The notes under the pieces: generated by a model | Databases searched by the model: none | The model's input: only the letters and a program-made list of their open reading frames with translations | What the model was told of the DNA's origin: nothing | IMG/VR virus record: IMGVR_UViG_3300042938_000824 | Span: 1 to 63,708 of that record | Direction: 5' to 3' (one strand) | Source: a virus | Lineage: Duplodnaviria > Caudoviricetes | DNA length: 63,708 nt | In this document: piece after piece, positions 3,690 through 13,925 of the stretch | Position numbering within the stretch: the first letter of the stretch is position 1 | Layout: every line of letters starts with the position of its first letter | Translations under genes and position numbers: made by a program

Positions 3690-3787
3690 AGACGGGCCTC
3701 AGACTGCCATGGTTCTGGGTATTGGTGGCCGCGTGGGCCACCGTCCTCCTGATCGCGTGGGCCACCAACACCGGCCTTATCAGTTGA
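3686..3787 (+). CDS. 33-aa single-TM peptide (not in ORF track)
   Basis: MKTGLRLPWFWVLVAAWATVLLIAWATNTGLIS*; ATGA overlap with the upstream gene. Confidence 0.55.
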   Translation: MKTGLRLPWFWVLVAAWATVLLIAWATNTGLIS

Positions 3788-6700
3788 CCTTGGCCCTCTT
3801 TTCCGCCTCGTCATAGTACGCCGCGACTGCGCGGTTCATCACTTCCGCCATGTCGTCGCGGATGTCGGACACCTTCTTCAGCCTTGCGGTCTGCGTCATG
3901 GTCTTGTTGTCCATCGCAGCGCGCAGCTTCTTCCGCAGATCCTTCAGCTGCCGGTCCGCCCGATCAAACGCGGACCGCACCCTTGAACTTGACGCGATGC
4001 GGGTCTTGCCTGAAGCCCGCAACTCCTTGTCCTCAAGTTCGTTCTCCGTGGTTTTTACCTCGCCAGCGAGGTCGTAGTATATGTCCTGCGCACCCCTCTT
4101 GGTCGAGGTTCCGGTCACGAAACGTTTGATCACCGGGATCTTGCCGAGGTCGACCTCTTCGCCAGCAATCACAGCCAGCGGTGCCTCCGTCAGCATGTAC
4201 TTGGCGTCGAGCAGGAACTTACCGGTGCCCGCAGTGGCGAACTCGAACCAGTACTGCAGGTGCTCAGGCGACCAGTCTAGGCCCCCCTTTCGCATCGCGT
4301 TGCCGCCCGTCAGGTCGTTGAGCTTTTGGGCCGCCCACACGAAGGTTCCATCCGTGCTCCGGTAGAAGCGCTCGCTCATGGGTTTGGTTTCGTCGTAGGT
4401 CGGCGGCACGATATCCATGTCCGCCCAATTCTTGTTGGACGCCAATTCGACAAGGGGGTCCACAAACCACGGCGATATGACCACGGCGGGGTTCGAGCTG
4501 GAACCGATGGGGCTGATCGCGCCTACCATGGCCGTGACCGCCCTGCCCATAGCTCCATCAGCCTTGATCGGCTGCCGGGGATTGGTGAAGCTGTCGATGG
4601 CTCGGTTGATATTGCGACCAAGGTTGTAGATCGCGCCATAGACGCCGATGGCCATCGGTATCTTCAACGGCTGGGTGATGCCGGGGACGCCGAACTTATG
4701 AACAGGCAAGACGATGTTGCGGGCCAGTTCGTCTTCCGACATCTGGTCGTAGTCCTTGATGCCGTTCTCGTCCTCATCATCGCTGACTGCGCGGTTGAGC
4801 GCGTCGAGCAAAACCGCCATGCCAATGACGCCGGTCAGGATACCTAGGCCCGCCTTCGACTTCAAGGCGCTGCCAGCCACGGCCATGCCGTTGGTGACGA
4901 CGCTCGCGAACAGGTAGCCGGTGTCCATGAGCTGCTTGTACTTGCCGCCCTTGTTGAAGTTGATGGTCAGGTTCTTGGCCGCGACACCAGCCTCGGTGAT
5001 TGATGCACCCGCATCACGCATGGCAGAGTACAGGCCCAAACGCATTGTGCCCTCGGCCACGTTGTTGAGGCCGTCCCACTTTGCCAGAGCGTAGTCGACA
5101 GCTTGGCCCGCCTTCGCGACAACGGCCTTGCCACCCTCCAAGGCACCGGCGTCACGGCGCAGCTTGTTGATCGTGGTCGCCAGATCGGTCGGCGCAAGGA
5201 AGGATACGATCCAGCCATTCTGCACCATCTCCTCGTAGTGGCGGGTCATCTTGCCGCTGCCCGGGGGAGCCTTCTGGTTGAGCTGGTACTCGCTGATCGC
5301 TATGGCGGCCTGCGGGATGCTGGCCACCATCTTCGGGATCAGGTTCTTTACGTCGTACTGCGCGGCGTTGATCAGGGCTTCCTGCGCGTCGCGCACGAAG
5401 TTGGTCAGCACGAAGTTCGGGTTACGCGACGTGATCAGCGCCGTGTAGGTCCGCCGCACCCACATCATTATCTGCAGGAGCTTGCCAAACTGCTCGATCA
5501 TCGGCGACCGCAGCGCATTGCTGATGTACATGTCGTCGGTCTGCAAGATGACGTCCTTGCCGTCTATCTTGAACACGAGGAAGCGTGGGTCGTTACGGAA
5601 TGAGGGGTCTACGATTTCTCGGATCATACCATCCGCGCCGTAGGCCAGACGCTTCGGGTACTGCGTCAGGATACTGATGCTGCCCTGCACCCCCGCAGCC
5701 TGCGCCTGCCGAATGGTATCGACCAGCGCCTTACCGACGCGGGCCCTCTCGCCCCTCATGACCGTCACGGCCTGCAAGGACACGAGGTTGGCGACGATGT
5801 CGCCAGCCTTGCTGGTGCGCCCGAACATACGCTTGTCGGGCCTCTTGCCCCACGACGTAAAGCCGCGACCGACGCCATCGGCCCGAGGTGGCTTCGTGAT
5901 GAAGTCGTTGGGGTCGGTGTCTTCGGTATCCCGCAGCGGCACCCAGTGCTGGAAGGGGGACGCGGCCAGAACGTCGGCGGTGATCTGCCCCGTTGCAAGC
6001 CGTGTTTGGTTGATGTCGGCAACGATGTCGTCAGCCATACGGCTGATCGCCATGAGGTCGGTGAAGGTGCCTTTCGCCCTTGCGTCGGCTATGATCTTGG
6101 CCGCCACGGCGTCGGTCATGCCAGAGGGGTCAGGCTTCTTCGAGCCGCGCGCACGCAGGTAATCGTTACGTTCCGGCGCGTGCAGGGCGTACAGGAAGTC
6201 GATCACGTCGTCATACGTAAAGCGCTTGGCCTTGATGCCCGCCTTCATGGCGTCAGTCAGCGGCGTGATGAACTGGCGCTCGCGCTGCTGGACTTGGAAG
6301 GCTGCCGCGCTACCGACCGACTGCTCGACGATGTAGGCGTTGAGGTCGGCAGGGATCGGGAGACCTTTCCTGACAAGCTCGTCGTAGTACTCCTTGATGG
6401 GCAGGAAGTTGTCCTGAAAGTTTATGCGGAGGTCAAAGATGCTGCCAGCGATGGGTATCGCCCGCTTGCTGCGCCCGAAGTTGTGCAGGTTCGTGCTGAA
6501 CCAGCCCTGCACCCTGTCGTAGATATTGCGGTGCACCATGCCGCCGTGGGGCGTAACCCGCGCGCGCGGACGACCCCTGCTGTAGCGGATGTCGGACCCA
6601 GCCGCAGACCAAGAGCCGCGGTCGGCAACGGCTGCCTTTGCCTGAGTTGGCTGGAAGGTGATGTAGGCGTCAGGCCCATCGGGTTCGGTACGGTACACGA

Positions 6701-9700
6701 TGCCGTCGTAGCCAGCCTCCATCACGGCGTCCTGCAAAGCGACGGGCCCATTGACCGTGTTGTCCATCACGCTGCGATAGAAGTCGGCGTCGATGACACC
6801 GAGGTCCAGCAACTGCTTGGCGACAGCGTCAGTTTTGAACGAGCCATCGTCTACGAGGGCCAGCGGGTTCTGGATCGACAGATATGACGGGTACCCCGGC
6901 CCCCGGTCACCTTGCGTGTTCGCCTGATCGACAGAGCCGAAGTGCGACCTGAACTCCGACGCCCTCGTGTCGAAGACACCGAGGTTACTGTCAGGAGTAC
7001 CGAGATCGTACACCCTCTTCGGCGCGCCGCTCTCGTCGACGACAGCGCTCTGCTTGAACCACGAATTGAAGGCGACGCTCGACAGGCCCTGACGCGGACC
7101 ACGCCGTTCGATGTCGAACTCGTACATGCCGAGCATGTCGACGAGGCTGCCGTTGGCGGTGAGCGTGTCGGCGTTCTCGATCTGCCCCTTGCCTGAAGGG
7201 TACAAGACCACGGGCATCGCCGTGGACTTACCAACGAGGGCGCGGGCCATGCCAACGCCATCGCTGTTCATGACCGGTACGGCACCAACCTTGCCGCTCT
7301 CGACAACGAGCGACGGCATGGTGTTGAACTTGAGGCCGTCGTTGGCCGCTGCGTTGTAGAGGGCCTGCTCGCGCACCGGTGCGGGGTCAGCGAGGCGCAG
7401 GAAGTCTTCGGGGTTCATGTAGACCAGCACGGCACCACGGTCGCCGTCACGCGCCATCTGCAACTGCTGGTACGCAACGTCGCCACCGAAGAAGGCGTTG
7501 CCGTCGCGCGTCTCGCTGAAGGCTGGAGCCGACGTATCGGCAGGCGATACCACCGCAGCCGCGGACCGCTTCGGGTCGCCGTAGTATTTGCCGCCGGGCA
7601 CGACGTCGTCGAGCATGGCGTAGAACTCAGGCGAGCCGACGTTGTAGCTGTTGGCCGCGGTAAGCTCCCCCATGTTGCCAGCACGGCCATCCAGCCATGT
7701 CCACTCTGGCATCAGGCCGGTCTTCTGGTCAGCGAAGACGGTATCCTCAACCGATGCGGAACGGTTCTTCTCGCCGTACGGGCCGTAGTTCAGCCAAGAG
7801 TTCTGGCCCCTCGTCTCGGTCGTGATCGCGCCGACAGCCGGTCCTTGGAACAGACGGACGTGGGCCTGCCACGCATTCTCTTCGCCGCGCGCACGGAAAC
7901 CAGCCCCCTCGAGGCCGTGGCCGAAGGCGTCGTGAACGGCGCGGAAGAGGTCGTTGGCCGTCACGTTGCGGAGGGGACCGGTCGGTGACCCCCACGCCCA
8001 CTTGATGTCGGTGCTTTGCAGGAGGGGATTACCGGTGACGTCGACGTCCGTGGCCCCGCTGCCGAAGCCGTCGGAAGTCGGGAACACCGCCATGCGCTTA
8101 TTGGCGCGCAGATCGCGCATGGCGTTCCACGGATTGCCGAAGCCGCCCTGCTGCCCTTCGTACGGATCCCGCCCATCGGGGTCACGGAAGTAGAACTGGT
8201 ACCCAGCCTGCTCGAGCGCGCGGTACTGGGCCACGGTCTGGCGGATTAAGTCTTGGTACGCCGCCACGACCTTTGGGTCTGTGGGGGCGTGCGGCATGAC
8301 ATCATAAGCCGCGGCGATACGCGCCGCGCGCTTGGGGTCTACCTCGACAAATTCGGATTGACGCCGGAGGTCGATGCCGTTGTCCCGAGCGTATTGCTCT
8401 GCGACGGCGAGGAGGCGCGCGTCCGGGCCCGATGCTCCTGCAACATTTGGCGCGCCTTCAAGAGGCGTACTGCTTGGGGTCGGTATCCGTCCTCCTCCGT
8501 CTCGGGAGGGGAGCCGCGACTGTTCCGCTGGTCCATACTTTATTCCTCGGCTGTAGAGATAGAAGTCACCCCGCCCCGGTACGCTTTGCCCGGAGGTAGA
8601 TCCATCAGCTCCTCTGGCATATCCACGATCTGCTGCCAGTTGTCCGGTACCGGACCGCTGAACGCGAGCGCGAGCCAGTTCTCCCTCGTAAGAGGTCGGC
8701 CTAGCCGCTGCAGCGCTACCACTATCGGGTCCGAGCCAAGTCGGGTCATTGATGCCTCCTGCAAGAGCCTCGATCTGCGTCCGGGCCGCGCCAACATCCA
8801 ACGCACCGGTCTTCACCGCGTTCCAGACGTTGAGCACCTGTTGTACTTTACCGGCGTTCCGCTTGTCAACGGCGGGAAATAAACCACGTATGGCCTCCCA
8901 CGTAATTGACTGCAATTCGCGCGGCAGAATGCCGAGCTGCTCGGCAGCGCGACGGTAAGCCTCGGCGTAGATACCGTAGGTACCTTGCGCGCCGTTGTCC
9001 GCGATATTTCTGGCCGCGATCCAACCAAGGGGCTGCTTCGATACGCCGGGGCTGGAGCCGAAGTTGTGGTGGACTTCAGGTGAGCTGCCCGACAACGGGC
9101 GTATCAGTGCCGCGGCCACCGCGTGGGTGTCGATTGTTACGTCACCCCACGGCGCTTTCGGCGCGAGGATGTTGTTATAGAAGTTGCGGACCTTGTGCTT
9201 CTCGCCCATCCGCTCGCTGACATTGTCGCGGGTCGGGTTGCCAATGGCACTGATCGCCTTGGCAATTTCGACGTTCGAGCCCCACGCCACGTTGCCTTCA
9301 GGCTGACCGATGAACTCGCCTTCGGGGCTGACCGTGCGGAACCCGCGCGGGTTGTAGGTCTCGTCGTAGATGCGGACCCACATGGCCTTGGTCAGGTCAT
9401 CCGGCATGTCGGTGAGCGTGCCGTTAAGCACGGTCTGCACATCATTGGCGTAGTCGGGTTTGGCGTAGATGCGCTGAGCGGTCGCGGCCATCTCCGGCGT
9501 AGGAGTGAACGCCCGATTGTTGCCGGTGGTGAACGATGTATAAATGTCGAGTACGCGCTCGGCGAGACTGACGTTCTGATACCAGTCTTTTTGCGGCGAC
9601 AATGACGCCAGCACCCCCGCGACAACGTAGTCGGGGAGATTGTACTGACGCGCCCAGCGTTCGGTGATGGTACGAGCGCCGTCGTACCAAAGCTTCGAGC

Positions 9701-12700
9701 GCTGTCGAATTTCCCCCGGCACACGGTTGTGCAGGTAGACAAGATTTCCGACAACGAAGTCGATGAAGTCTTCGGCGATCTGGTCCGGGATTGTCGCCGT
9801 GGTGCGGAAGCCGGGGTACGACTTCACAATTTGCATGTTAGCCGCAAATTTGGCGGGGTCCGCCTTCATCGCCGCGAGGTCGATGATCAGGTTGTCGGTC
9901 AACGGATTTTGCCGCGCCAGACCTCGTATGGTCGTGGGCTGGCGCGTTGAGATACGGTCGGGCGTGTCGCCGTTGGGCATCATGCGCGTCTGAAGAACGC
10001 CGCGGCTGTACCGCGTCTCGTCGCCGATGCCCGACAGGTCGATGATGTCTTCGCGCGGCTGAACCGGTTCGACCAGCGCCTCGGGCGGCAGCAGTGCCGC
10101 CTTCTGTTCAGCGAACTCGCGCATGTTCGGCGGCACGTAGCCAAGGGCGTCCGGTGCCGCGATGCTGCCATCGGTCAGACGCATCTTCGGGCCAGCATTC
10201 TGCCACGCCGACTGGGCCAGCATCTCGGTGGCGAGGGCGCGTGTGCCCTGATCCGAGTACATGCCCTTGAGCGTGTGGTACGCGCGGTAGTCGCCCAGCT
10301 GGCTGGGGACAGCACCCACCGGCGCGTAGCCATACACCTCGGCCACGACGCGCAGCAGATCACCGTTCGAGAGCGAGGAGCCATCCGGCGTGGTGATGCC
10401 CGACGGTTCCTGCATGGGGTGGTTACGGCGTGAGGGGTGGGGCGGGAACAGCTCGTTGCTGAGCCGCATCTTCACCTGACCATTGTCGGCGATGTCGTCG
10501 ATCAGTTCGCGCTGGTTGAGATACGGCTGGCCATTCTCCCGCCACGGCACGACCTCGACGTTGAGCGTGTTGAAGATGGCCTTGGTTTCGGCGACCAGCG
10601 ACGAGTACGCCTTGCCGACCGCGATGTTGCTGGGCTCGTGCTTGGCCTTGTCGTAGGCGTCGGCTAGCTTCATCAGGAAGCCTGCGTCTGGCGTGTCCCT
10701 GTTGGGCGTCGGCGACAGGTTGAGGTCCGTCTTGGCCTTCTCAAGCAGATCCTCGACGCGGTCGAACGAGCCGCGGGGCCCGACCATGAAGTCGTCACTC
10801 GGCGTCGTGCCAAGCACCGAACGGGGCCCGACGCGACCGACGCGGTCTTCGGCGGCCTGCTCGCGGGCCTGAAGGAACTCGCGCTGCGCCGCGAGCGTTT
10901 CTTCGGGCGTCGTTGCCACAGCCATGTCGGCTCTGGCCTTCTCCATCATTTCGACGGCGGCACCGCGGTACGACAGCGGTGCCTTGATGCGCGACCGCGC
11001 CAGCGTGCCGGTCTCGATGCTGCGGAAGATGTCGTCCGGCACCGAGCCAACCAGACGCTTGAACCACTCGACGATCTTCTCAAGAGCGGTGCGCGGCACG
11101 CCGGTCACGGCCCGCCTGTTGGCGGCCCACATGCGGAACGCTTCGGCGATAGCCTCTTCGACAACGACGTCGGGGCGGTCCCGTAGGTCGGGGTTGGTGT
11201 CGAACGCCGTCTCGAGGTACGTCTTGCCCGTCTTCGGGTGCGTTGCCTTCTCGACGTAGTTGGACAGAATTGACCACGCCCGTGTGCGGGGGGCCAGAAC
11301 ACCAGCCTCGCGGAGGGCGTGGACGGTTTCGTGGTCCATCACGCCAGCCAGCGCTTCGACGACCTCGTCGGTCGACATGTTGGGGTCGAGGTTCTCGACC
11401 GACAATTCGATGAGCTGATTGAGGTACGAACCCTCGATGCCACCTTCGCCTTCCTTGTCGGTGATCGCCAAGACGATCTGGACGCGGTTGCCGATCAGGG
11501 GCAGGGCGCGGCGGTTGGCCTGCTCGTTAAGCTTGTCGACGATCTCCTGCAGTCTGCCCTCTACCACCTTGGGGGTCGGGACGATCTGCTGGCGCGACCG
11601 CGCGATGACCGACGGTCGCGGCGCGCGCCCCGACGCGCGTGCTGCGGCCACTTCGTCTGCTATCTCTTGAAAGGCTTCTGGCCCCGTTCGAACGCGTGGC
11701 GGTGCGGCTCCTCGCGCCGTAAATCTTTCGGCTTCCGCCCGTGCGGTGTCTTCGGCGACGTGCGTACTGACGACAGCGCGGTCAACCAGATTGCCTTCGG
11801 CGTCGTAGCGGTTCTCGTAGACGGCGTAGCCCGGTCGGCCATCCATCGCCTTGCCTTCGGCGTCGACACCGCCGCGCGCAACTTCCACCCTGCTGGCCGG
11901 GAGTTGTTCAGCCTTCTCGCGCTCGCGGATCCCGCGCACGGCGTCCTTAGCCGCGACCTGATCCTCGAAGACACCGACGACCTTGCCGTCCTTCTTGACG
12001 GCAATGGTATCTAACGACACAGGGGCAACAGTGAAGGTCTTCAGCGGCGACTGGGTAGACGGGGCAGCGGGTCGTTCGTACGGCTTGAAGGTTCCGGGAC
12101 GGGTACCCGGCACCAAGTCGCCGCGCTGGACCATCTCGTCGCGGATCAGCTTGGCCGCGGCGGGTGTTGCGCCGGTCGCGTCCTGCAGACCCTTGAGAGT
12201 GAAGCGGCCAGCCGAGCGAACGGAGGCAACGCCTGCGCCATACTGCTCTTCGGTAAAGGGGCCAGTGCGCGCGACGGCGCTTTCCTGCGCCGGGCGCGTC
12301 GAAGACGCGAGGCCCTGCTCGCCGGTCAGCGGCTTGCGGGCGAGGATCAGTGCGTCGATGAAGCTTTGGTCGACCTTGGCATTCTTCATGTCGGCAACCG
12401 ACACGGGTGCATCCGGCTGACGCCCGGTACGCATCCGCCACAGGTTTACCTTGCCCGCGACGTCGGGGCCAACCTCGGACATGCTGAACGAGCCGATGGG
12501 CGTGGTGACTTCGCGGGCAGTGCCCAGCGTGGCCCGGGTGCGGTCGGCGGCCTTCTGCGCGATCTGCTCTTCGGTCGGCGAAAGCTTGATCGTCTGCTGC
12601 CGCGCGACGATGGGCGACACGATGTCTTCTGGTGCGGATGGGGGAGGCAGCGCCAACCGCTTCTCGCGCTCAATAGCCTTCGGCTGCGCCGCTACGTTGC

Positions 12701-13925
12701 CGAGCGTTTCCGCGATGCCGGGGTCGGCACCGGTGGGCACACCGAAGTTGGACCCAACGACCCTCTCGGTCGTCGGCGCGGCCTTGTCGTCGGGAACAAA
12801 GGGGCCCTGCGTAATCCGGTCGACGGCACTGACACCGCTCTGCGTGATACCGCCGCCAAAGGCCCCCGATAGGATCGCGGTCGTCAGCCGGTTCGAGGCC
12901 TCGGACCAAGTCATCTCTGGCTCAATAAAACCTTTGTCGAGCCCGATCTGGAGTAGAGCGGTAACGCCTTCCGACAGCCCTTCGGCTGCGACCTGCTCGC
13001 CAAGCTTGCGGAAGAACCGGCCCGGCCCCTGCTGCAGCAGCAGTCCGATGGGTAGGGCGGACGGGATTGCCTCGGACGCGCCAGACAGAACCCCGTACAG
13101 CGCGGCGTCGTTCGGGGAAAGACCTTCATCGCGCCCACGACCATAGCTCTGGCCTTGTGTCATGAGCTGGGCCTGCGCCAACACGGGAGCAGGGGTCTTC
13201 AGGAGAAGCGACGCAGCTATGGCAGGGGCCAGCTGGGCCGTCGAGCTTACAGCCGATACGCCAGCGCCAATAATGGAGCCGGGGACGACATTGACAGGAA
13301 TGCGTTCCGCCTCAATCTTCTTGCGTTCTTTCGCGCCTTCTTTTTCGAGCGCCTGAACACGCTCGTACGATGTACCCAACGGCCTGAAGTTTGGATCCTG
13401 CCCCTTCAACGCGGCTTCAAGCTCCGCCTTGCCCTGCGGCGTCTTGATGAAGGCCTCGACCTGAGCAGTCTGCGCCGGGTCGAGAATGTCGCGACCAGTC
13501 CCAGCAGGTTGTATGCCGAGCCTGCCCGAAGCCCAGCGGATCAGGTTCTGCTCGTCGAAGGAGGCTGTTCGGGTGGCGTTTAGCTTGTATTCGGGGCCGA
13601 TCTGCGCAAGCAGCTTGTCGGGGTCTCCAGCGGAGCCCTCGAAAAGCTGCTGCTTTATGCCGGAAAAAGCCTGCGGAAAATCGGACGCAAAAGCGTTAAT
13701 CGCCGACTTACCTGCAGCAACAAACGGGTTGTCGGCTTTACTCTTCCGCTCAAGGATATTCTGAATTTCGTTGGGGTACTTGGAGCTGATCAGTTCGGCG
13801 ATACGCTGCGGGGTTGTACCCGGCTTAAAAGCAACAAGCTGCCCATCGGGCATCTCTACAACGATGTCGTTTTCGGGCTGCTGTGGAGCCGTCGGAGGCC
13901 CGTAAGGTGACGCGCCAAACGACAT
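3780..13925 (-). CDS. Giant 3381-aa polyvalent virion/ejection protein (wHTH, zincin HExxH, HhH-like glycosylase, duplicated HDxxGH domain, ParB-like, ART-like, LPD38-like C-terminus)
   Basis: Last gene of the late operon after the ejection proteins; HETVH 11319-11333, KVRNF..VTIDTH ~9120-9195, HDAFGH ~7917-7934, WFKQSAVVDESG..GYDGIVY..DIRYSR ~6575-7070. Confidence 0.85.
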   Translation of the reverse strand: MSFGASPYGPPTAPQQPENDIVVEMPDGQLVAFKPGTTPQRIAELISSKYPNEIQNILERKSKADNPFVAAGKSAINAFASDFPQAFSGIKQQLFEGSAGDPDKLLAQIGPEYKLNATRTASFDEQNLIRWASGRLGIQPAGTGRDILDPAQTAQVEAFIKTPQGKAELEAALKGQDPNFRPLGTSYERVQALEKEGAKERKKIEAERIPVNVVPGSIIGAGVSAVSSTAQLAPAIAASLLLKTPAPVLAQAQLMTQGQSYGRGRDEGLSPNDAALYGVLSGASEAIPSALPIGLLLQQGPGRFFRKLGEQVAAEGLSEGVTALLQIGLDKGFIEPEMTWSEASNRLTTAILSGAFGGGITQSGVSAVDRITQGPFVPDDKAAPTTERVVGSNFGVPTGADPGIAETLGNVAAQPKAIEREKRLALPPPSAPEDIVSPIVARQQTIKLSPTEEQIAQKAADRTRATLGTAREVTTPIGSFSMSEVGPDVAGKVNLWRMRTGRQPDAPVSVADMKNAKVDQSFIDALILARKPLTGEQGLASSTRPAQESAVARTGPFTEEQYGAGVASVRSAGRFTLKGLQDATGATPAAAKLIRDEMVQRGDLVPGTRPGTFKPYERPAAPSTQSPLKTFTVAPVSLDTIAVKKDGKVVGVFEDQVAAKDAVRGIREREKAEQLPASRVEVARGGVDAEGKAMDGRPGYAVYENRYDAEGNLVDRAVVSTHVAEDTARAEAERFTARGAAPPRVRTGPEAFQEIADEVAAARASGRAPRPSVIARSRQQIVPTPKVVEGRLQEIVDKLNEQANRRALPLIGNRVQIVLAITDKEGEGGIEGSYLNQLIELSVENLDPNMSTDEVVEALAGVMDHETVHALREAGVLAPRTRAWSILSNYVEKATHPKTGKTYLETAFDTNPDLRDRPDVVVEEAIAEAFRMWAANRRAVTGVPRTALEKIVEWFKRLVGSVPDDIFRSIETGTLARSRIKAPLSYRGAAVEMMEKARADMAVATTPEETLAAQREFLQAREQAAEDRVGRVGPRSVLGTTPSDDFMVGPRGSFDRVEDLLEKAKTDLNLSPTPNRDTPDAGFLMKLADAYDKAKHEPSNIAVGKAYSSLVAETKAIFNTLNVEVVPWRENGQPYLNQRELIDDIADNGQVKMRLSNELFPPHPSRRNHPMQEPSGITTPDGSSLSNGDLLRVVAEVYGYAPVGAVPSQLGDYRAYHTLKGMYSDQGTRALATEMLAQSAWQNAGPKMRLTDGSIAAPDALGYVPPNMREFAEQKAALLPPEALVEPVQPREDIIDLSGIGDETRYSRGVLQTRMMPNGDTPDRISTRQPTTIRGLARQNPLTDNLIIDLAAMKADPAKFAANMQIVKSYPGFRTTATIPDQIAEDFIDFVVGNLVYLHNRVPGEIRQRSKLWYDGARTITERWARQYNLPDYVVAGVLASLSPQKDWYQNVSLAERVLDIYTSFTTGNNRAFTPTPEMAATAQRIYAKPDYANDVQTVLNGTLTDMPDDLTKAMWVRIYDETYNPRGFRTVSPEGEFIGQPEGNVAWGSNVEIAKAISAIGNPTRDNVSERMGEKHKVRNFYNNILAPKAPWGDVTIDTHAVAAALIRPLSGSSPEVHHNFGSSPGVSKQPLGWIAARNIADNGAQGTYGIYAEAYRRAAEQLGILPRELQSITWEAIRGLFPAVDKRNAGKVQQVLNVWNAVKTGALDVGAARTQIEALAGGINDPTWLGPDSGSAAAARPTSYEGELARARVQRSGTGQLAADRGYARGADGSTSGQSVPGRGDFYLYSRGIKYGPAEQSRLPSRDGGGRIPTPSSTPLEGAPNVAGASGPDARLLAVAEQYARDNGIDLRRQSEFVEVDPKRAARIAAAYDVMPHAPTDPKVVAAYQDLIRQTVAQYRALEQAGYQFYFRDPDGRDPYEGQQGGFGNPWNAMRDLRANKRMAVFPTSDGFGSGATDVDVTGNPLLQSTDIKWAWGSPTGPLRNVTANDLFRAVHDAFGHGLEGAGFRARGEENAWQAHVRLFQGPAVGAITTETRGQNSWLNYGPYGEKNRSASVEDTVFADQKTGLMPEWTWLDGRAGNMGELTAANSYNVGSPEFYAMLDDVVPGGKYYGDPKRSAAAVVSPADTSAPAFSETRDGNAFFGGDVAYQQLQMARDGDRGAVLVYMNPEDFLRLADPAPVREQALYNAAANDGLKFNTMPSLVVESGKVGAVPVMNSDGVGMARALVGKSTAMPVVLYPSGKGQIENADTLTANGSLVDMLGMYEFDIERRGPRQGLSSVAFNSWFKQSAVVDESGAPKRVYDLGTPDSNLGVFDTRASEFRSHFGSVDQANTQGDRGPGYPSYLSIQNPLALVDDGSFKTDAVAKQLLDLGVIDADFYRSVMDNTVNGPVALQDAVMEAGYDGIVYRTEPDGPDAYITFQPTQAKAAVADRGSWSAAGSDIRYSRGRPRARVTPHGGMVHRNIYDRVQGWFSTNLHNFGRSKRAIPIAGSIFDLRINFQDNFLPIKEYYDELVRKGLPIPADLNAYIVEQSVGSAAAFQVQQRERQFITPLTDAMKAGIKAKRFTYDDVIDFLYALHAPERNDYLRARGSKKPDPSGMTDAVAAKIIADARAKGTFTDLMAISRMADDIVADINQTRLATGQITADVLAASPFQHWVPLRDTEDTDPNDFITKPPRADGVGRGFTSWGKRPDKRMFGRTSKAGDIVANLVSLQAVTVMRGERARVGKALVDTIRQAQAAGVQGSISILTQYPKRLAYGADGMIREIVDPSFRNDPRFLVFKIDGKDVILQTDDMYISNALRSPMIEQFGKLLQIMMWVRRTYTALITSRNPNFVLTNFVRDAQEALINAAQYDVKNLIPKMVASIPQAAIAISEYQLNQKAPPGSGKMTRHYEEMVQNGWIVSFLAPTDLATTINKLRRDAGALEGGKAVVAKAGQAVDYALAKWDGLNNVAEGTMRLGLYSAMRDAGASITEAGVAAKNLTINFNKGGKYKQLMDTGYLFASVVTNGMAVAGSALKSKAGLGILTGVIGMAVLLDALNRAVSDDEDENGIKDYDQMSEDELARNIVLPVHKFGVPGITQPLKIPMAIGVYGAIYNLGRNINRAIDSFTNPRQPIKADGAMGRAVTAMVGAISPIGSSSNPAVVISPWFVDPLVELASNKNWADMDIVPPTYDETKPMSERFYRSTDGTFVWAAQKLNDLTGGNAMRKGGLDWSPEHLQYWFEFATAGTGKFLLDAKYMLTEAPLAVIAGEEVDLGKIPVIKRFVTGTSTKRGAQDIYYDLAGEVKTTENELEDKELRASGKTRIASSSRVRSAFDRADRQLKDLRKKLRAAMDNKTMTQTARLKKVSDIRDDMAEVMNRAVAAYYDEAEKRAKVN
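8339..8536 (-). CDS. Second nested 65-aa gene in the +1 frame of the giant gene
   Basis: GAGGAaTAAagtATG: starts 3 nt after the stop of the first nested ORF; acidic patch then helix AVRLLKARQMLQEHRAR. Confidence 0.5.
   Translation of the reverse strand: MDQRNSRGSPPETEEDGYRPQAVRLLKARQMLQEHRARTRASSPSQSNTLGTTASTSGVNPNLSR
8540..8749 (-). CDS. Nested 69-aa gene in the +1 frame of the giant gene (candidate immunity protein)
   Basis: AGGAGG-catca-ATG; MTRLGSDPIVVALQRLGRPLTRENWLALAF..; hand-counted GC3 48/69 in this frame vs 33/69 in the host frame. Confidence 0.7.
   Translation of the reverse strand: MTRLGSDPIVVALQRLGRPLTRENWLALAFSGPVPDNWQQIVDMPEELMDLPPGKAYRGGVTSISTAEE

Follow-up and report, generated by a model that had tools for sequence, protein, structure and literature searches.

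A probable overlapping gene at a domain boundary within a giant phage polyvalent-protein gene

The Rz1 gene of phage lambda lies wholly inside Rz, in the +1 frame and with its own start, and the products of the two genes bind each other. In the cassettes of colicins, contact-dependent inhibition (CDI) systems and other polymorphic toxins, the immunity genes lie downstream of the toxin gene and do not overlap it. Here we describe a locus that invites comparison with both, in a Caudoviricetes record of 63,708 nucleotides (IMG/VR IMGVR_UViG_3300042938_000824, positions 1 to 63,708; this whole stretch is called the window below). A 65-codon open reading frame (ORF), referred to as ORF2, is nested in the +1 frame of a 3381-codon gene, in front of a domain of the host protein that we name after its HDAFGH motif. 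In a Pfam scan the host protein matches LPD38 (106.6 bits, cutoff 27) and DUF7178 (87.5 bits, cutoff 27), with ART-PolyVal at only 28.8 bits, under its cutoff of 31.2, and the neighbouring genes encode a DNA ejection protein and a virion structural protein. From these matches and neighbours, the 3381-codon gene is therefore a phage polyvalent virion protein; it combines several unrelated domains, including polyvalent-associated Pfam families, as do the polyvalent proteins of phages and conjugative elements (Iyer et al. 2017, PMC5512222).

On the comparative evidence set out below, ORF2 is very probably a real overlapping gene. The reading we favour, which we regard as moderately probable when taken as a whole, is that this gene encodes a product binding the adjacent HDAFGH domain, and that the two would form one cassette in which the peptide has a holding or silencing role. 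ORF2 lies wholly within the longer gene, on the same strand and in a different frame, and in the window it has its own start and ribosome-binding site, with GAGGA placed 7 nt before the ATG. A preliminary description of the locus had reported a second +1 ORF led by a Shine-Dalgarno (SD) sequence, its ATG 3 nt past the stop of a first nested ORF (ORF1); the coordinates 8339-8536 and the order GAGGA-TAA-AGT-ATG were verified, and the host motif YSRG does lie at the junction of the two nested ORFs, the SD-like GAGGA being encoded by the YSRG codons. The acidic patch and the helix are likewise as it quoted them. Its view that the host frame is linker-like over the first 40 nested codons holds only in part: from nested codon 12 (host residue 1808) onwards the host frame is the conserved N-terminal extension of the next domain, reading GDGxGR, 8 residues and PLEGAP across the +1 core. 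A promoter and terminator scan of 8200-9400 returned 0 sites.

The evidence for a gene comes from homologous loci. Homologues of the HDAFGH domain comprised two loci found by single-sequence searching and five GenBank phage loci, to which a search with alignment A2 added the best 80 of 575 relatives on viral contigs and the best 80 of 545 in metagenomes. Removal of identical segments left 148 unique loci, with 58-74% domain identity to the window; codon-position entropies were taken over 141 of them, and stops and starts were resampled over 140. Upstream of the cassette the host sequence differs wholly among the 148 loci, and similarity starts at the module boundary, about 25 residues ahead of the host extension GDGxGR-8 residues-PLEGAP. 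Across the site the +1 frame is open in every locus (148/148), with an ATG inside the open stretch in 132/148 and ATG-initiated ORFs of at least 50 aa in 123/148. First ATGs are concentrated 121-150 nt before the anchor (51 loci), and 72 loci have their downstream +1 stop in the same position class as the window. The +2 frame, used as a control, has an ATG in 3/148 loci and a median open stretch of 35 codons. The conserved upstream +1 ORF that the preliminary description had asked for, with start, acidic patch and helix, is thus present in nearly all close homologues of the intact domain.

Purifying selection on the embedded frame is found in entropies, stops and identities. At host residues 1808-1820 the third codon positions are constrained (0.3-1.3 bits), in contrast to four-fold sites downstream (1.6-1.97 bits) and to third positions elsewhere in the same 141-locus alignment, which are saturated. 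Host first positions vary most at these same residues, and the normal host pattern is back near residue 1827. Constrained third positions together with the most variable first positions therefore form the signature of coding in the +1 register. When synonymous codons were resampled within each of 140 loci (100 replicates, every host residue kept), 53.0 +1 stops were expected in the core (host 1807-1826) and 9 were observed; over host 1827-1837 the figures were 37.2 and 8. Inside the domain the ratio of observed to expected +1 stops was 0.97-1.04, and for the +2 frame it was 0.6-1.1. Mean pairwise identity in the core was 0.50 for the +1 translation, 0.36 for the host and 0.17 for the resampled +1 frame, with control regions giving 0.28-0.34 for +1 versus 0.23-0.31. 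Starts follow the same trend. An ATG 4-20 codons upstream with no intervening stop is present in 85/140 loci versus 40.6 +/- 4.7 after resampling, and an ATG followed by at least 30 open codons in 80 loci versus 18.8 +/- 3.7, a figure that none of 200 resamplings brought above 27. In a sub-group of loci (L054, L105, L141 and L150) an insertion of about 8 host codons makes the ORF terminate ahead of host PLxGAP, yet the +1 motif is retained, which shows it to be independent of PLxGAP.

The functional part of ORF2 appears to be shorter than the ORF. In a variant strain the core carries no single-nucleotide polymorphisms (SNPs). The preliminary description had taken the S/T/P-rich tail for a shadow of the host frame, and the alignments bear this out: beyond host residue 1837 +1 stops are near-neutral (125 versus 167 expected), host third positions in the tail are fully variable by entropy, and the three strain SNPs in the window's tail, a small sample, all lie at host third positions. 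Near-neutral stops and third-position SNPs past residue 1837 thus delimit a functional peptide of about 40 residues. The window's own +1 stop (8339-8341; GTA of host V1862 followed by D1863) is present in 76 of 140 loci, with 28.3 expected by resampling; either a rare GTA codon was inherited, or +1 termination there was favoured. The coordinates of the features are collected in Table 1.

Table 1. Coordinates in the window of the host gene, the nested ORFs and their parts, and the HDAFGH domain.
Feature	Coordinates	Strand	Basis or remark
Host gene, 3381 codons, phage polyvalent (virion-associated, multi-domain) protein	3780..13925	-	ORF list, Pfam, neighbours
Nested ORF2, 65 codons + stop, +1 frame of host	8339..8536	-	ORF list, translation; host residues 1797-1862
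ORF2 start ATG	8534-8536	-	
ORF2 stop	8339-8341	-	
SD-like GAGGA, 7 nt upstream of ORF2 ATG	8544-8548	-	Same bases as host YSRG codons
TAA ending ORF1 (preceding +1 ORF)	8540-8542	-	
AGT spacer, ORF1 stop to ORF2 ATG	8537-8539	-	
Conserved dual-coding +1 core: acidic PETEEDG followed by basic helix, peptide residues 10-30	8447..8509	-	Entropy, identities, stop depletion
ORF2 stretch after core, +1 stops still depleted, host 1827-1837	8414..8446	-	8 stops vs 37.2 expected
ORF2 S/T/P-rich tail, shadow of host domain, length variable among homologues	8339..8413	-	Third positions free, SNPs
HDAFGH domain, host residues 1821-2090, predicted partner of ORF2 peptide	7656..8465	-	Alignments A2 and A4, model, co-fold
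Nested ORF1, ATG form, 69 codons + stop, same +1 frame	8540..8749	-	Conserved small gene
ORF1 longest form, start GTG 8806	8540..8806	-	
GGAGG 5 nt before ORF1 ATG (8749)	8755-8759	-	

The domain that follows ORF2 has 270 residues and a confident model, with a predicted local distance difference test score (pLDDT) of 89.4. Its alignment contains invariant H, D, H and E residues as well as the motifs GEENAW / ETRGQNSW. No Pfam match and no PDB sequence match were found for it, and the best Foldseek hit against the PDB had an E of 0.5. Abylysin and YbeY folds were considered and set aside, since their VIA-wide Z of 2.1-2.2 (best Z 2.7) is too weak to name a fold. A stand-alone version of the domain, 27% identical, occurs in about 199 Bixzunavirus-type mycobacteriophages, for example as Catera gp103.

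Binding between peptide and domain is predicted by co-folding, a check that the preliminary description had proposed. The inputs were domain alignment A4 (66 rows) and peptide residues 1-45 with the peptide profile A3; with these alignments of our own, for which the calibration is only rough, the interface score ipSAE was 0.91, 0.88 and 0.91 as against 0.06 for the best of 3 controls, a mark attained by 58/80 solved complexes and 2/110 mismatched pairs. Contacts agreed between runs to at least 77%, and the partner pLDDT was at least 72. On the peptide side the predicted interface spans residues 8-39, that is, the whole conserved core; on the domain side it takes in the PLEGAP stretch at residues 4-11, two residues of the NDLFRAVHDAFGH helix (N171 and R175), and residues 189-195. 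The co-fold supports binding and is silent on blocking of a catalytic site. The chances that the ORF2 peptide partners with the adjacent HDAFGH domain appear to be about evenly balanced.

Among viral loci retrieved via the peptide alone, the domain is present in 76/76 and 19/19, and the peptide always lies one base ahead of the domain frame. This co-occurrence is partly automatic because ORF2 and the domain overlap, and it mainly means that phages contain no free-standing copy of ORF2. In each of the 148 loci at least 116 upstream codons of the host frame are free of stops, with no free-standing ORF2 beside a separately started domain. In one locus (L181, 3046-3870 and 4033-4851), a single giant gene contains tandem HDAFGH cassettes, each with its nested +1 ORF and with near-identical upstream linkers. 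The preliminary description had assigned ORF2 to the downstream domain cassette. For phages this assignment is supported by the co-occurrence, the duplication in L181 and the co-fold; bacterial genomes and distant homologues speak against an exclusive tie, as described next.

The alternative that survives best, although we consider it unlikely, is that ORF2 is translated into a product independent of the HDAFGH domain, such as a small host-directed or regulatory peptide, and that the giant gene merely reads through a pre-existing gene as a linker. The neighbouring ORF1 has such a history, being free-standing in 24/59 loci and read through in 26/59. The bacterial distribution of the ORF2 motif also favours this alternative. 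A search of species-representative bacterial genomes with the peptide pattern gave 14 loci, comprising 3 full cassettes, 1 cassette cut by a contig end, 3 decayed remnants that keep only the N-terminal part of the domain, and 7 loci without the domain. Outside cassettes, the motif heads stand-alone proteins with other C-terminal domains or lies in frame within proteins. In bacterial bins, a free-standing 128-aa protein (L357) is related to P0149/L346, an in-frame occurrence is found in L355, and in L358 the motif lies inside a kinase-TPR protein; the called proteins P0164, P0210 and P0214 join it to a different C-terminal domain. The HDAFGH domain is present in 0/5 of the bacterial genomes with such motif proteins, although these bins may be incomplete. 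Pfam recognised nothing in the stand-alone motif proteins except kinase and TPR in L358. L344, the only viral locus related to the C-terminal domain of P0214, has a decayed motif ORF and no HDAFGH domain. Set against an independent product are the presence of the domain with every phage peptide match, the lack of a free-standing ORF2 beside a separately started domain across 148 loci, and a co-fold that passes by a wide margin. The ORF2 motif may be a more general interaction module. The proteins of the L357 (1492-1878), L346 and P0149 type are about 130 aa long, start with the motif and have a small helical C-terminal domain in common, and a paralogue of that C-terminal domain is encoded just downstream in L357 (1965-2216).

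Several further points weigh, like the bacterial proteins and bins just described, against ORF2 as a gene whose product is bound to the HDAFGH domain. The domain occurs without ORF2 in the distant homologues Catera gp103, L004 and L005; in two others (L006 and L007) there is a weaker ORF2 look-alike in another register. Entropies, identities and resampling alike are uncorrected for common descent among the loci. The start position varies: 55/140 loci have no ATG in the canonical window and 9/141 none in the open stretch, and a 4-mer SD precedes only 38/85 canonical ATGs. In the window itself, the ORF2 helix departs from the family consensus and contains a proline. Contigs from RNA libraries cover 8592-8741 and 7775-8035; they show neither strand nor ends and could be DNA. 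With respect to the complex, invariant columns are not enriched at the predicted contacts (by hand count, the roughly 46 contacts include 9/51 invariants, where about 9 would be expected), and none of H178, D179, H183 and E186 is named as a contact, which leaves occlusion of an active site unsupported.

A second alternative denies that there is a gene at all, and attributes the conservation of ORF2 to a shadow of the host GDGxGR and PLEGAP motifs combined with GC-rich codon usage. From the window sequence alone this would be an adequate account. The host gene contains 18 +1 ORFs of at least 50 aa, so that a length of 65 aa is ordinary; its 15 +1 ORFs of at least 65 aa exceed the 8.9 +/- 2.1 of synonymous-codon shuffles, and a similar excess of long ORFs occurs in the +2 frame (7 versus 2.5 +/- 1.4). 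The excess in both alternative frames is a general codon-context effect. The remaining +1 ORFs of the host gene are GC-rich, R/S/T/P/A-rich shadow without an SD. The sole feature standing out is that three of the four strong SD-ATG pairs in the +1 frame (1.3 +/- 1.1 expected) cluster at 8749, 8605 and 8536, and Gly/Asp-rich linkers can yield GGAGG and xAT-Gxx (ATG) unaided. Taken by itself the window therefore does not place ORF2 beyond chance. The host motifs do overlap the core, which is the basis of the shadow argument. However, synonymous resampling predicts a 3-fold lower +1 identity, 5-fold more stops and half the ATGs; host third positions are constrained only at the ORF2 core, where the +1 frame is more conserved than the host; and the motif is found in other registers and outside any host frame. 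These comparative data place ORF2, to judge by the aligned sequences, far beyond chance, and the shadow account is largely refuted and highly improbable.

A programmed ribosomal frameshift from the host frame, giving a truncated giant protein that ends in the conserved peptide, would explain why the +1 frame is under selection even though no start codon is fixed. We consider this slightly less credible still, since +1 stops lie 5-14 codons before the motif in 24/141 loci, often directly before an ATG, the bases upstream of the core show no conserved slippery site (entropy 1.4-1.95 bits at all three positions), ATGs are enriched, and free-standing forms begin at the motif. Least probable of all is that the bases are conserved not as a second frame but as a nucleic-acid signal, such as a site within the gene where ribosomes bind or pause, a structured RNA, or a hotspot at which recombination shuffles domains: the core does contain a GGAGGAGGA-like run and polyvalent proteins do recombine at cassette boundaries, but 35 core sequences gave no consensus RNA structure (-0.12 kcal/mol, 2 invariant pairs), the constraint recurs at every third base in step with the +1 frame, and stop depletion runs 11 codons past the conserved bases.

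Returning to an overlapping gene with a domain-binding product, we propose the following model. Ribosomes would start at the ORF2 ATG (8536) through GAGGA, or would re-initiate there after the ORF1 stop 3 bases upstream. The product would have about 40 functional residues, consisting of a short variable N-terminus, the acidic PETEEDG patch and a basic amphipathic helix, with a dispensable tail. It is predicted to bind the HDAFGH domain encoded by the same DNA, so that peptide and domain would constitute an inseparable cassette that is duplicated, and passes from one phage polyvalent protein to another, in one piece. Most likely the peptide would serve to keep the domain held or silent inside the producing cell up to the packaging of the giant protein, in an immunity-like or chaperone-like manner. 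That the peptide acts as an inhibitor of the domain, as the preliminary description proposed, is a reasonable but tentative guess at its putative role. A broader form of the model, which we put forward as speculation, would have polyvalent effector domains carry an out-of-frame keeper on the DNA of their own N-terminal boundary, where cassette shuffling could not separate the two, and the 'linkers' of such proteins would generally be read-through partner genes (ORF1 behind a DUF7178-like domain, ORF2 before the HDAFGH domain).

ORF1 bears on this model as the upstream neighbour of ORF2. Its peptide has a motif of the type LP-x-TRE-x-Y-L followed by an acidic AE..E..LP stretch, and the strict motif pattern finds a small +1 protein in 50/59 unique homologues of the upstream DUF7178-like domain (L188-L267); the other 9, the window included, have ORF1 variants recognised by eye. 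By these sequence comparisons, ORF1 is taken to be a real conserved small gene. Where it is a separate gene, the domain frame stops right after the domain, and where it is not, the domain frame reads across it; since both states occur, the 'linker' of the giant gene is considered to have arisen by read-through of an out-of-frame small gene. The order ORF1-stop-ATG-ORF2 seen in the window recurs in L203, and in L191 and P0127 ORF1 and ORF2 are one fused ORF. The term 'mini-operon' used in the preliminary description is therefore reasonable, with ORF1 real as well, and the two ORFs are possibly coupled by termination and re-initiation. The YSRG junction has counterparts elsewhere. These giant proteins (in the window, L169 and others) repeatedly show a host-frame motif of the type [RK]-[YF]-S-[RLV]-G where modules meet, some 10-15 residues ahead of the following cassette, and the window has three YSRG copies, at host residues ~1331, 1791 and 2497 (about 9930, 8550 and 6430 on the - strand). 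This boundary motif could be a processing site or a recombination scar.

The ORF2 peptides share a common layout: Met, about 8-12 variable residues often with DPN, PETEEDG, a basic RAEALRRLKVRQL-type helix, and a variable S/T/P/Q tail. The A3 profile, built from 66 peptides, matches 181 small called proteins and 308 cluster representatives at E <= 0.001, none of them named. For ORF1 and ORF2, no tblastn match among 50,697 phage records improved on E = 1, and neither peptide has a match in Pfam or PHROGs; the close relatives sit in metagenomes and not in GenBank phages. The ESM Atlas returned no usable match to the peptide, only single-helix look-alikes. Some relatives depart from the common layout. 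A called 105-aa protein (P0124) has two copies of the ORF2 motif in one frame, and a 96-aa protein (P0122) continues after the motif with other sequence; L168 and L169, which are related to P0122, are ordinary nested cases. A third type of small +1 protein (E-x-KDWLG-x-GIV-x-PGP) lies upstream of ORF2 in L003, and P0210 and P0214 combine it in one protein with the ORF2 motif and one more C-terminal domain. DNA near-identical to 7600-9400 of the window occurs in lake, wetland, soil and wastewater metagenomes of 13 studies without the possible source sample (14 with it), and one wastewater contig joins 7959 to 8483 via 505 other letters, a variant of the N-terminal half of the domain.

A 65-codon ORF inside a 10-kb gene is never reported by gene callers, and the family has consequently been invisible in phage annotation. 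With at least 308 cluster representatives it is nonetheless widespread, occurring among others in phages sampled from lakes, wetlands, soils and marine sites. A second frame can thus be coding within the low-complexity 'linkers' of polyvalent virion proteins, and reading through small neighbouring genes is a suggested route by which giant genes grow. A 40-residue peptide together with a 270-residue orphan domain also offers a concrete pair for asking how phages restrain injected effector domains before packaging.

Compared with known systems, the host gene resembles the polyvalent proteins in having LPD38, DUF7178, many domains and a place in a virion module, to the extent that PMC5512222 describes them. 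Nested genes in linkers do not appear to be part of that description: a term search of the PMC5512222 text gave no occurrence of 'overlapping', 'frameshift' or 'linker', and full-text literature searches, judged by titles and abstracts, yielded no article that deals with genes nested in, or overlapping, those of polyvalent proteins. The locus resembles toxin-immunity cassettes in that a variable, putatively enzymatic domain sits where modules meet and is genetically linked to a small protein predicted to bind it, the pair probably being swapped and duplicated together; the difference is that ORF2 is overprinted on the N-terminal extension of the domain itself. A close genetic parallel is the pair of embedded spanin genes Rz/Rz1 of lambda (PMC5295617). 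Like Rz1, ORF2 is a small same-strand reading frame wholly within a larger phage gene, in the +1 frame and with a start of its own. In Rz/Rz1 the two products are partners, and for ORF2 partnership is predicted only. The 65-residue ORF2 translation has no cysteine, no lipobox and no hydrophobic signal sequence, and in this it differs from Rz1 and from o-spanins. Its host is a 10-kb multi-domain virion gene, and, unlike that of Rz and Rz1, the overlap is placed at a domain boundary and travels with one domain.

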